Positions 31,638 through 35,043 of a stretch of DNA of 64,000 nucleotides are shown here, in pieces. The DNA comes from Escherichia coli (GTDB lineage Bacteria > Pseudomonadota > Gammaproteobacteria > Enterobacterales > Enterobacteriaceae). The position numbers and the translations under genes were made by a program. A model generated the notes under the pieces. It was given only the letters and a program-made list of their open reading frames with translations. It was not told the origin of the DNA and ran no database searches. The DNA is taken from assembly GCF_013122565.1 (NCBI RefSeq), contig NZ_CP053258.1; one strand, written 5' to 3'. Every line of letters begins with the position of its first letter. Positions within the stretch are counted from its first letter, which is position 1.

Positions 31638-32699
31638 TTACAGCGCAATACGAATCACATCGTCCGGCTGGGTAGCTTCCTGCTGTTTAGTGGATTTTTG
31701 TTTCACACTGACATACAGCGTTTTGCCATCGGCAGACAGCGCCAGGCTGTTCGGATGAGTCGGCGTATCGAACGTTTTCACCACTTTATAGCTTTTCGCG
31801 TCAATCACACTGACTTTACCTGCCTGACGATGCGTCACGTAGGCTTCATTACGCGCGGGGTTAAACAGCACAGCCAGTGATTCCGGTGCCGCAACCTTCG
31901 CCAGAATATTGCCATTACGGGTATCGACCACTAACACTTCTGCCGCTTTAGAATCGGTAATAAATGCACGCTGCCTGGCGGTATCAAGGCTGATGTTGAT
32001 AAAGAAGTGCTCTTTGCCGTCATCCAGCAGCTTTTTACGGCTGAGGATTTTATTGTCGGCGGTGTCGATAGTAATCAATTCGCCGTCAGCGTTAGTGGTG
32101 TAAAGACGTTTGCCTTTGCTATCCAACGCCAGACCGGTACTCATTTTACCGGTGTTCTGGATGGCGGTTTTCAGTTTGATATTCTCGCCATCAACGACCC
32201 AAATCACGCTATCTTTACCAATACCACTGATGTAAACGGTGTTCGTGGCATCGTCAGCTACCAGCTCACGCGGTTGCAGCGGGCGCACCTCTTCCGTGCG
32301 CTTACGCTCATCCAGCACCAGACGACCTTTCACCTCGCCCGTTTTGGCATCTATCGCCGTGACCGCGCTGTTTACGGTATTACCAAACCACAACGTCTGA
32401 GTCGTGTTATTGATGGTGGCACCAAACGGCTTGAGATCGTTATGGATCGCCTGCGTCACTTCCAGAGTGACCGGATCAAGTCGATAAACCACACCACCTT
32501 TATCCAGTTTGCGGCTTTGCGAAGTGGCGAGCCACAGCGCGTTTTCTTGCTGGCTATAAGCCATTTCGTAGGCGCCTTTACCTACCGCTTTACGCAGCAT
32601 TTCTTCTGCGGCCTGCGTACTGAATGATGAAGCAACAAGCAATGAACCTAACAGTAATGAACCACGCAGGCGCGATGAAAACAGATGACGTAAATGCAT
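31638..32699 (-). CDS. yncE: PQQ-like beta-propeller periplasmic protein (353 aa)
   Basis: Track ORF 353 aa; signal peptide; repeated beta-propeller blades (..GKRLYTTNADGELITID.., ..GKTLYVSVKQ..). Confidence 0.88.
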   Translation of the reverse strand: MHLRHLFSSRLRGSLLLGSLLVASSFSTQAAEEMLRKAVGKGAYEMAYSQQENALWLATSQSRKLDKGGVVYRLDPVTLEVTQAIHNDLKPFGATINNTTQTLWFGNTVNSAVTAIDAKTGEVKGRLVLDERKRTEEVRPLQPRELVADDATNTVYISGIGKDSVIWVVDGENIKLKTAIQNTGKMSTGLALDSKGKRLYTTNADGELITIDTADNKILSRKKLLDDGKEHFFINISLDTARQRAFITDSKAAEVLVVDTRNGNILAKVAAPESLAVLFNPARNEAYVTHRQAGKVSVIDAKSYKVVKTFDTPTHPNSLALSADGKTLYVSVKQKSTKQQEATQPDDVIRIAL

Positions 32700-32785
32700 G
32701 ACGACTCCCTTTGATGAACCGATATTTTTGCTGCTTCACAATGCTTCGCTAAGCGTAATCATCGTTACGCTCTTGTTATAAATGG

Positions 32786-32804
32786 GAATGGTAATCATTA
32801 TTTT
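32786..32804. promoter_or_regulatory. Putative Fur box in the yncE/yncD divergent promoter region
   Basis: gaatggtaatcattatttt matches the core Fur consensus AATGATAATCATTATC at about 14 of 16 positions (hand alignment), ~90 nt upstream of yncE and ~140 nt upstream of the TonB-dependent receptor yncD. Confidence 0.45.
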
Positions 32805-32940
32805 CTCAAATGTGGAGCATTTCTTGCCGTTACGACTACAATTTTCTCAATTACTTAACGTATCGTGCCGTTTCGTTTTCCATAAATTTACAATTTTATT
32901 ACCATGACGGCGTTTTCCCATTCTTAACCTGGCTTTTTTC

Positions 32941-35043
32941 ATGAAGATTTTTTCCGTCCGACAGACCGTTTTGCCCGCACTGCTTGTCCTTTCACCCGTT
33001 GTTTTTGCCGCTGATGAACAGACCATGATTGTCAGTGCCGCACCGCAGATGGTTTCCGAGCTGGATACCCCAGCAGCCGTGAGCGTGGTGGATGGCGAGG
33101 AGATGCGCCTGGCAACACCGCGCATTAACTTGTCTGAATCACTGACCAGCGTGCCTGGTTTGCAGGTACAAAACCGGCAGAACTATGCGCAAGATTTACA
33201 GCTGTCGATTCGCGGATTTGGCTCCCGCTCCACTTATGGAATTCGCGGTATTCGCCTGTATGTGGACGGTATTCCCGCTACCATGCCCGACGGACAAGGG
33301 CAGACATCCAATATCGATTTAAGCAGTGTGCAAAATGTGGAAGCGCTGCGTGGTCCCTTCTCTGCCCTGTATGGCAACGCGTCTGGCGGTGTAATGAATG
33401 TCACCACCCAGACCGGACAACAGCCACCAACCATTGAAGCCAGTAGTTACTACGGCAGTTTTGGCAGCTGGCGCTATGGGCTGAAAGCAACGGGCGCAAC
33501 GGGCGACGGCACACAGCCCGGCGATGTCGATTACACCGTCTCAACCACGCGTTTTACGACCCACGGCTATCGTGACCATAGTGGCGCACAGAAAAATTTA
33601 GCCAATGCCAAACTGGGCGTACGCATTGATGAAGCCAGCAAATTAAGCCTGATTTTCAATAGCGTGGATATCAAAGCAGATGACCCAGGTGGATTAACCG
33701 AAGCAGAATGGAAGGCGAATCCGCAACAAGCGCCACGCGCTGAACAGTACGACACGCGAAAAACCATCAAGCAAACTCAGGCTGGGTTGCACTATGAGCG
33801 TAGCCTGAGCGCACAAGATGATATGAGTGTGATGATGTATGCCGGAGAGCGAGAAACGACCCAGTACCAGTCAATCCCGATGGCCCCCCAACTTAATCCG
33901 TCGCATGCGGGCGGCGTGATTACTCTGCAACGCCATTACCAGGGGATAGACAGTCGCTGGACACACCGCGGCGAGCTGGGCGTTCCGGTCACGTTCACTA
34001 CCGGCCTGAACTACGAAAACATGAGTGAAAACCGCAAGGGCTACAATAACTTCCGCCTGAATAGCGGCATGCCGGAGTACGGGCAAAAAGGTGAGTTGCG
34101 TCGCGACGAACGCAATCTGATGTGGAATGTCGATCCCTATTTACAGACGCAGTGGCAGCTGAGCGAAAAACTGTCGCTGGATGCTGGCGTGCGCTACAGC
34201 TCTGTATGGTTTGATTCCAACGATCATTACGTTACTGCGGGTAACGGCGATGACAGCGGTGATGCCAGTTATCACAAATGGCTACCTGCCGGTTCGTTAA
34301 AATATGCAATGACCGATGCCTGGAATATCTATCTGGCAGCCGGGCGTGGTTTTGAAACGCCGACGATTAATGAGCTGTCTTATCGCGCTGACGGGCAAAG
34401 CGGTATGAACTTTGGTTTAAAACCATCCACCAACGATACAATTGAGATCGGCAGTAAAACGCGTATTGGTGATGGGCTGCTTAGTCTCGCATTGTTCCAG
34501 ACCGACACCGATGATGAAATTGTTGTCGATAGCAGTAGCGGTGGGCGTACGACTTACAAAAATGCCGGAAAGACCCGTCGTCAAGGTGCTGAACTGGCAT
34601 GGGATCAACGTTTCGCGGGAGATTTTCGCATAAACGCGACCTGGACCTGGCTTGATGCGACCTATCGCAGCAATGTGTGCAATGAACAGGATTGTAACGG
34701 TAATCGGATGCCAGGGATCGCCCGTAATATGGGCTTTGCGTCGATAGGTTATGTACCGGAAGATGGCTGGTATGCAGGCACGGAGGCGCGTTATATGGGC
34801 GATATTATGGCAGATGATGAAAATACGGCCAAAGCGCCGTCTTATACTCTCGTCGGCTTATTCACCGGGTATAAATACAATTACCACAATTTAACTGTGG
34901 ATTTATTTGGTCGTGTCGATAATTTATTCGATAAAGAATACGTTGGTTCTGTCATTGTCAATGAGTCAAACGGGCGATATTACGAACCTGCGCCCGGGCG
35001 AAATTATGGTGTCGGCATGAATATTGCGTGGCGATTTGAGTAA
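32941..35043 (+). CDS. yncD: TonB-dependent outer-membrane receptor (700 aa)
   Basis: Track ORF 700 aa; signal peptide, plug domain, C-terminal ...NIAWRFE beta-barrel terminus with aromatic last residues. Confidence 0.9.
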   Translation: MKIFSVRQTVLPALLVLSPVVFAADEQTMIVSAAPQMVSELDTPAAVSVVDGEEMRLATPRINLSESLTSVPGLQVQNRQNYAQDLQLSIRGFGSRSTYGIRGIRLYVDGIPATMPDGQGQTSNIDLSSVQNVEALRGPFSALYGNASGGVMNVTTQTGQQPPTIEASSYYGSFGSWRYGLKATGATGDGTQPGDVDYTVSTTRFTTHGYRDHSGAQKNLANAKLGVRIDEASKLSLIFNSVDIKADDPGGLTEAEWKANPQQAPRAEQYDTRKTIKQTQAGLHYERSLSAQDDMSVMMYAGERETTQYQSIPMAPQLNPSHAGGVITLQRHYQGIDSRWTHRGELGVPVTFTTGLNYENMSENRKGYNNFRLNSGMPEYGQKGELRRDERNLMWNVDPYLQTQWQLSEKLSLDAGVRYSSVWFDSNDHYVTAGNGDDSGDASYHKWLPAGSLKYAMTDAWNIYLAAGRGFETPTINELSYRADGQSGMNFGLKPSTNDTIEIGSKTRIGDGLLSLALFQTDTDDEIVVDSSSGGRTTYKNAGKTRRQGAELAWDQRFAGDFRINATWTWLDATYRSNVCNEQDCNGNRMPGIARNMGFASIGYVPEDGWYAGTEARYMGDIMADDENTAKAPSYTLVGLFTGYKYNYHNLTVDLFGRVDNLFDKEYVGSVIVNESNGRYYEPAPGRNYGVGMNIAWRFE

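Follow-up and report, generated by a model that had tools for sequence, protein, structure and literature searches.

The closest described system is the Fur box of yncE in Escherichia coli K-12, and the sequence considered here is the same element, an already documented Fur operator of yncE; only the host strain, three yncD-proximal substitutions, and the yncD allele differ. Bar 2022 states that a Fur box had been identified in the yncE promoter by work cited there. Direct binding of Fur to yncE is reported in Beauchene 2015 and, independently, by Banerjee 2020, and yncE is a member of both Fur iModulons.

A second close relative is the Fur-bound operator of the yddA-yddB-pqqL operon, which is nearly identical to the yncE box (AATGGGAATGGTTATCATTA versus AATGGGAATGGTAATCATTA, with the shared form AATGGGAATGGT(A/T)ATCATTA) and, like it, consists of two overlapping registers 6 bp apart. 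The yddA operon and yncE have both been proposed as RyhB-enhanced "predicted iron uptake" loci. The yddA operator fronts an operon that includes the TonB-dependent receptor gene yddB, whereas at yncE, the receptor gene, yncD, lies on the opposite strand and is mostly uncontrolled by the box.

The enterobactin cluster offers a different comparison. The pairs fepA-fes, fepD-entS, and fepB-entC are likewise divergent, and their short intergenic regions hold Fur boxes that score highly. In these pairs, both units are Fur regulated; as a rule, each promoter has its own peak or box, or else the spacer is very short: the fepD-entS spacer is 110 bp, and fepA-fes and fepB-entC have at least two peaks each. 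In contrast, the yncE-yncD pair has one operator, near yncE and at least 139 bp from yncD, and yncD responds in only two of nine strains. Finally, cirA resembles yncE in that Fur represses and RyhB activates it, with relief from Fur contributing more than RyhB in both cases. For cirA, both the site where RyhB pairs and the way it activates are established, whereas for yncE, a site (32730-47) is only proposed.

Here, we describe this operator in a 64-kb stretch of E. coli DNA, which we call the window and along which all positions are counted unless stated otherwise. We conclude that the yncE promoter almost certainly has its primary Fur operator in this sequence and that yncD, now called pqqU, is at most a weak, conditional bystander.

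Position of the box and strength of the Fur match

The box lies in a 241-bp gap between yncE and yncD, which are divergently oriented. A sequence-only reading of this DNA had placed a Fur-box-like sequence between the gene for a periplasmic beta-propeller protein and that for a TonB-dependent receptor, and the open reading frames and Pfam domains of the two flanking genes bear this out (Table 1). In essentially every complete E. coli genome, RefSeq names the pair yncE and pqqU (formerly yncD). The box is 85 to 103 bp from the ATG of yncE versus 139 to 157 bp from the start codon of yncD. The yncE coding sequence is 98.2% identical to that of K-12, with 4.2% of third codon positions changed, and the yncD coding sequence is 96.5% identical (3.5% diverged), with 8.4% of third codon positions changed. 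Divergence from K-12 is uneven across the 3.5-kb locus (31638-35043), to which no complete E. coli genome is more than 97.7% identical. At the 3' end of yncD, positions 35012-35028 (plus strand) match exactly the intragenic sigma-54 binding motif TCGGCATGAATATTGCG, which points toward the genes downstream of yncD; a sigma-54 chromatin immunoprecipitation (ChIP) study reported this motif at the same place in K-12, as site IS18.

The letters at 32786-32804 are gaatggtaatcattatttt, exactly as the sequence-only reading gave them, but the best Fur register begins 2 bp to the left, at 32784-32802 (GGGAATGGTAATCATTATT). This register matches the classical Fur box GATAATGATAATCATTATC at 15 of 19 positions. 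No other place on the two strands of the window matches as well; the next-best matches, at three unrelated places, reach 14 of 19. Read as a 7-1-7 inverted repeat, the core matches TGATAATnATTATCA at 12 of 14 positions by our own count. For comparison, the ChIP-exo motif reported by Gao et al. for Fur is TGAnAATnATTcTCA (PMC10164565).

Table 1. Features of the yncE-yncD locus, in window coordinates
Feature	Position	Strand	Remarks
yncE coding sequence	31638..32699	minus	353 aa; Pfam YNCE beta-propeller; periplasmic, 7-bladed; the regulated gene
Conserved leader block GAAGCAUUGUGAAGCAGC	32730..32747	minus	directly 3' of the stem; complementary to RyhB core …UGCUCACAUUGCUUCC…
GAAGCAUUGUG	32737-32747		part of the RyhB-complementary leader block
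yncD promoter candidate TTCACA-16-AATCAT	32735-32762	plus	9/12, sole 9/12 match in the region; would read through the box; hypothetical
Stem-loop AGCGUAA-CGAUGA-UUACGCU	32752..32771	minus	+9 to +28 of yncE mRNA; 7-bp stem, 6-nt loop
Weak yncD promoter candidate TTGTTA-17-CATTAT	32773..32801	plus	8/12; -10 inside the Fur box; hypothetical
Extended hexamer array ATAAAT GGGAAT GGTAAT CATTAT T	32778..32802	none	two overlapping 19-bp registers, 6 bp apart
yncE transcription start (putative)	32779	minus	from the 80-nt 5' UTR of the Wang et al. 2015 construct
Core 19-bp Fur box GGGAATGGTAATCATTATT	32784..32802	none	consensus match, PWM, ChIP-exo, conservation
yncE -10 candidate TACCAT	32788..32793	minus	putative; -14 to -9, inside the Fur box; kept as TAYYAT in all genera
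7-1-7 inverted-repeat core TGGTAAT-C-ATTATTT	32789..32803	none	centre C32796; read from the sequence
TAATCATTA	32792-32800		part of the Fur box
yncE -35 candidate TCCACA	32811..32816	minus	in conserved block CTCCAC(A/T)TT, 32809-32818
Proximal yncD promoter candidate TTTCCA-17-TACCAT	32877..32905	plus	putative; -35 at 32877-32882, -10 at 32900-32905; conserved
yncD (pqqU) coding sequence	32941..35043	plus	700 aa; TonB-dependent receptor (plug and barrel domains); imports PQQ; transcribed away from yncE

The match was scored with a consensus-seeded position weight matrix (PWM) trained on 15 K-12 promoters of classic Fur-regulated operons, with yncE left out (fepA-fes, fepD-entS, fepB-entC, fhuA, fiu, fhuE, tonB, cirA, exbB, feoA, fecI, fecA, fhuF, sufA, and yddA). 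The box at 32784-32802 scores 15.6 bits and ranks first in the 64-kb window, close to the median of the known sites under leave-one-out scoring (median, 15.7 bits; minimum, 7.7 bits). An overlapping register at 32778, offset by 6 bp, scores 14.3 bits and ranks second. Of the 15 known K-12 Fur promoters, 6 contain register pairs with this offset. The matrix is also specific: in 122 kb of real K-12 DNA, 22 of 23 positions with an equal or higher score lay within known Fur promoters or at their edges. The box thus does not show the low score against background that the sequence-only reading had named as a refuting outcome.

Across the window as a whole, the PWM score alone is not decisive because about 0.4 single matches of this score are expected by chance per random 64 kb, and 30 to 40% or so of random windows would contain one. 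At the composition of this intergenic region (37% GC), the chance expectation is 0.0055 per 241 bp. The two-register signature is rarer, with an expectation of about 0.02 per 64 kb and 0.0003 per 241 bp.

The only other cluster of overlapping Fur-like registers in the window, at 14483-14513, lies between a leucine-rich-repeat protein gene and narU. It proceeds in 6-bp steps: 14483 scores 12.9 bits, 14489 matches the consensus at 14/19 positions, and 14495 scores 11.9 bits. For MG1655, the ChIP-exo peak list has no Fur entry there.

Fur occupancy, conservation, and the yncE promoter

Occupancy and expression were measured in other E. coli strains, whose operator is identical, rather than in the strain of the window. 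Relative to K-12, the 164 bp of intergenic DNA nearest yncE, which include the box, are unchanged. The three substitutions that do separate the region from K-12 (32864, 32875, and 32897) are all yncD proximal, around the putative proximal yncD promoter; the same three substitutions are found in strain EC042. The intergenic region is present at an identity of at least 95% in 5,411 of 5,426 complete E. coli genomes.

Gao et al. reported an intergenic Fur ChIP-exo peak in eight of nine strains, only when iron was replete (Gao et al. 2023, PMC10164565), and the earlier data by Seo et al. also contain the MG1655 intergenic peak. Placed by RefSeq gene coordinates, the W3110 peak (1524928-1524940 in that genome) is 81 to 93 bp upstream of the yncE ATG, corresponding to window positions 32780-32792, and the EC042 peak (1648906-1648918) is 79 to 91 bp upstream, corresponding to 32778-32790. 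Both peaks thus fall on the left half of the box. Moreover, yncE was derepressed in every strain where the peak was seen: in the fur mutants of eight strains, it rose by a log2 fold change of 3.1 to 8.1, i.e., 9- to 280-fold (Gao et al. 2023, PMC10164565). For yncE, published ChIP-exo and fur-mutant data of the kind the sequence-only reading had named as a check therefore agree with it, with Fur on the box and strong derepression in its absence.

The box is also conserved. The best PWM match within 130 bp upstream of yncE reaches at least 12 bits in 69 of 78 orthologous loci (median, 14.9 bits), and across Enterobacteriaceae, the box is kept about 80 bp upstream of yncE. Its end is 72 to 88 bp from the yncE ATG in nearly all loci, the exceptions being a few loci without the leader hairpin described below. 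When 35 intergenic regions from about 20 genera are aligned, a near-invariant CTCCAC(A/T)TT is followed by a variable spacer and then by a near-invariant A(A/T)TAATGATTAYYATTCBCAT; the invariant core of the orthologous boxes is TAATGATTA.

These data bear on the alternative that the box is an AT-rich sequence that looks like the Fur consensus by chance and regulates nothing. The low GC content of the region and the expected frequency of single matches per random 64 kb speak for such a resemblance. They are opposed by the two-register signature, ChIP-exo occupancy in eight strains, derepression of yncE in fur mutants, and near-invariance over about 20 genera at a fixed distance from yncE. We consider the occupancy and conservation data to rule this alternative out, leaving it a negligible probability.

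How Fur acts on yncE can be read from the arrangement of the promoter. In the construct of Wang et al. 2015, the "entire 5' UTR" of yncE runs from -80 to +24, counted from the start codon, and the start at 32779 that we infer from this construct puts the 19-mer at -23 to -5 and the extended array at -23 to +2. The only minus-strand promoter candidate that fits the -80 start is TCCACA-17-TACCAT, in which both hexamers are weak, the -10 and -35 candidates each matching at 4/6 positions, and the start is 9 nt past the -10 element, at the long end of the usual range. The block that holds the -35 candidate is near-invariant yet a poor -35 element, and it is more conserved than a weak -35 element needs to be; another factor may act at CTCCAC(A/T)TT, upstream of the Fur box.

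The mechanism is most likely classical promoter occlusion by Fe2+-Fur, a reading that depends on the putative -10, -35, and start assignments. When iron is plentiful, Fe2+-Fur dimers would bind the hexamer array, span the -10 element and the start site, and exclude RNA polymerase, so that yncE is silent. When iron is scarce, Fur would leave, allowing very high transcription of yncE.

Relation of the operator to yncD (pqqU)

The sequence-only reading went further and proposed iron-responsive coregulation of the divergent pair through a shared box. One half of this proposal stands, in that a genuine Fur box controls yncE, but coregulation of yncD is not generally supported. YncD is PqqU, a high-affinity importer of pyrroloquinoline quinone (PQQ) with no role in iron acquisition. 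Specialists report that yncD is neither Fur regulated nor iron induced, and its Pseudomonas aeruginosa orthologue is iron insensitive. The literature therefore gives yncD neither the iron substrate nor the induction by iron limitation of an iron-regulated TonB-dependent receptor. A search for literature on PmrA control of yncD or for Reg-Seq results on yncD found nothing usable.

Expression in fur mutants is divided. yncE was up in all eight strains, whereas yncD was unchanged in MG1655 and W (log2 fold changes of 0.12 and -0.10, respectively) and is absent from the Fur regulon of seven of the nine strains, these two and five others (Gao et al. 2023, PMC10164565). It belongs to the Fur regulon only in W3110 (log2 fold change, 2.95) and EC042 (2.02), where it rose roughly 4- to 8-fold; in W3110, it went from about 4 to 5 to 32 expression units in the fur mutant (P = 3e-51), and in both strains, Gao et al. 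assigned the intergenic peak to both genes (PMC10164565). The intergenic DNA of MG1655 and W3110 is identical, which excludes a cis difference there as the cause of the strain-specific response. Therefore, the difference between these two strains reflects strain background or culture state.

One reading of the response in W3110 and EC042 is that the box is a shared, bidirectional operator that also represses yncD, through a distal promoter that overlaps the box or reads through it, which would make both genes iron regulated in the manner of fepA-fes or fepB-entC. The assignment of a single peak to both genes agrees with this, as do the plus-strand promoter-like sites that overlap the box or lie upstream of it. 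Of these, TTGTTA-17-CATTAT is a possible minor, Fur-sensitive yncD promoter. A weak plus-strand promoter in the box stays alive as an idea because Georg et al. list yncD/yncE as a head-to-head pair with possibly overlapping untranslated regions, an overlap that might also explain copurification with RyhB. Against a shared operator stand the unchanged yncD levels in the MG1655 and W mutants, the different responses of strains with identical DNA, and the specialists' denial of Fur or iron control for a gene whose substrate is PQQ. Promoter position is also unfavorable. The sole conserved yncD promoter candidate, the proximal one, is about 75 to 120 bp from the box, or about 110 to 130 bp by a second estimate, in a region where the alignment shows the blocks GTTTTC, TTTACA, and TA(A/C)CAT, whereas the two distal candidates are not conserved as promoters beyond Escherichia and Citrobacter.

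Evolution argues against a shared operator too, since the box is not kept together with both genes. Nine Citrobacter loci, for which the full 2.5-kb upstream flank is available, have lost yncD (L010, L011, L014-L016, L020, L022, L025, and L078): they contain no YncD-like sequence, and the box persists 77 to 84 bp from yncE. In these loci, homology to yncD-containing relatives stops 116 to 140 bp upstream of yncE, just upstream of CTCCAC(A/T)TT, and what is retained is the candidate -35 element, the box, and the leader. In one of them (L010), the neighbor of yncE is an unrelated 470-aa open reading frame in a segment of 33.5% GC that was probably acquired horizontally. Taken with the expression data, the persistence of the box without yncD makes a shared bidirectional operator unlikely.

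Another reading accepts the yncD response in the two strains as real but denies that the box is its promoter operator; the response would instead come from Fur that, at very high activity, spreads out of the primary site or occupies a weak secondary site over the proximal yncD promoter, or indirectly from the deletion of fur. Low yncD levels are confined to cases of the tightest yncE repression: taking the columns of the expression table as wild type and then mutant, an order deduced from the sign of the fold change, wild-type yncE is at about 18 units in W3110, 0.4% of its derepressed level, whereas in MG1655 (about 300 units) and W (about 94 units), yncD is already at its fur-mutant level. 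This pattern fits a low-affinity or threshold effect. A weak Fur-like site (6.2 bits, 32885-32903) overlaps the proximal yncD promoter candidate, but it scores far below the known sites. An extra MG1655 ChIP-exo peak within yncD, considered next, would also agree with this reading. The data cannot tell an indirect effect from a direct one, and we regard this second reading, like the first, as improbable.

The extra MG1655 peak was, like the intergenic one, seen under iron-replete conditions only and lies at about 33049-33086, some 108 to 145 bp inside the yncD coding sequence (Gao et al., PMC10164565). It is absent from the Seo et al. data, and the PWM gives no match of at least 6 bits within about 33049-33086. 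From P37 onward, the transcription unit columns in the MG1655 peak sheet of Gao et al. are displaced by one row against the peak columns.

By position, by evolution, and by function and expression, the box belongs to yncE. That it is shared with yncD is weakly supported, and a weak effect on yncD through the box is at best conditionally true. In most non-Escherichia genera, the yncD-proximal region carries additional conserved blocks, ACGAACCAAATGGAACATG … CATGTTAA, with ACATGT palindromes (e.g., L029, L031, and L035), which are missing from Escherichia. These blocks may be a regulator site for pqqU.

The yncE leader, RyhB, and the significance of the operator

Downstream of the box, the yncE leader contains a conserved stem-loop. 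In 37 Enterobacteriaceae sequences, 92.7% of the stem cells are paired, with compensatory changes in seven of seven pairs; the score was reached by 0 of 500 shuffles, and slid controls were at most 51% paired. The stem has 33 G-U cells versus 6 A-C cells, which places the hairpin on the yncE-sense strand and rules out a plus-strand terminator. An upstream open reading frame starting at the ATG in the hairpin loop was also rejected, as this ATG is present in only 27 of 37 sequences and length, frame, and stop are not conserved. A scan of 32600-33000 against Rfam at an E value of ≤1 matched no family, and hence no described RNA corresponds to the hairpin. Nor did the fold of the whole leader indicate a stable structure that sequesters the ribosome-binding site (z = -0.38). 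The hairpin may be an mRNA-stabilizing element or a leader element related to small RNAs or Hfq.

Activation of yncE by RyhB is validated, and in RIL-seq data, yncE is a major partner of RyhB. Directly 3' of the stem, the conserved block GAAGCAUUGUGAAGCAGC could pair with the RyhB core with an energy of -22 kcal/mol, a value matched by 18 of 1,000 shuffles and 39 of 800 natural segments, which is modest for one sequence. In nearly all genera, the best duplex with the RyhB core uses this block and the same region of RyhB. With full-length RyhB, the duplex with the yncE leader (duplexfold) was not significant, as 58 of 500 shuffles were as good and the duplexes were unrealistically long, and published CopraRNA energies for RyhB-yncE are weak, at about -5 kcal/mol. 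We tentatively propose the block as the RyhB pairing site in the yncE leader, on the basis of complementarity and its recurrence across genera.

A natural deletion variant bears on the same region. In Pseudescherichia vulneris and relatives (L032, L038, and L040), the leader has neither the hairpin nor the RyhB-complementary block, and the Fur box is only about 39 to 43 bp from the yncE ATG. This variant is useful for testing the function of the yncE leader.

Because Fur represses both yncE and ryhB and RyhB activates yncE, the three form a coherent feed-forward loop. In this loop, RyhB, relieved from Fur when iron is scarce, would further boost yncE through the 80-nt leader.

A more far-reaching possibility combines these observations. 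The yncE operator could also be a conditional brake on pqqU, acting through a minor distal promoter or by Fur spreading to 32885-32903, while the leader hairpin and the GAAGCNAUGU block make up an undescribed RyhB-responsive element that completes the Fur/RyhB feed-forward loop. We put this forward as a tentative idea that is probably incorrect. If true, PQQ scavenging would be coupled to iron status under strongly iron-replete conditions and only in certain backgrounds, as seen in W3110 and EC042.

The value of the preferred reading, in which the box is the Fur operator of yncE, is mainly correct annotation of a textbook-type Fur operator. Among E. coli genes of unknown function, yncE is one of those under the strongest Fur control. 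A residual puzzle is that yncD responds to the deletion of fur in two of nine strains, with identical DNA in a responder and a nonresponder. The conserved leader hairpin provides a handle on how RyhB activates yncE. Moreover, linking the operator to yncE rather than to yncD helps to avoid misannotating the receptor, which imports PQQ, as an iron transporter.
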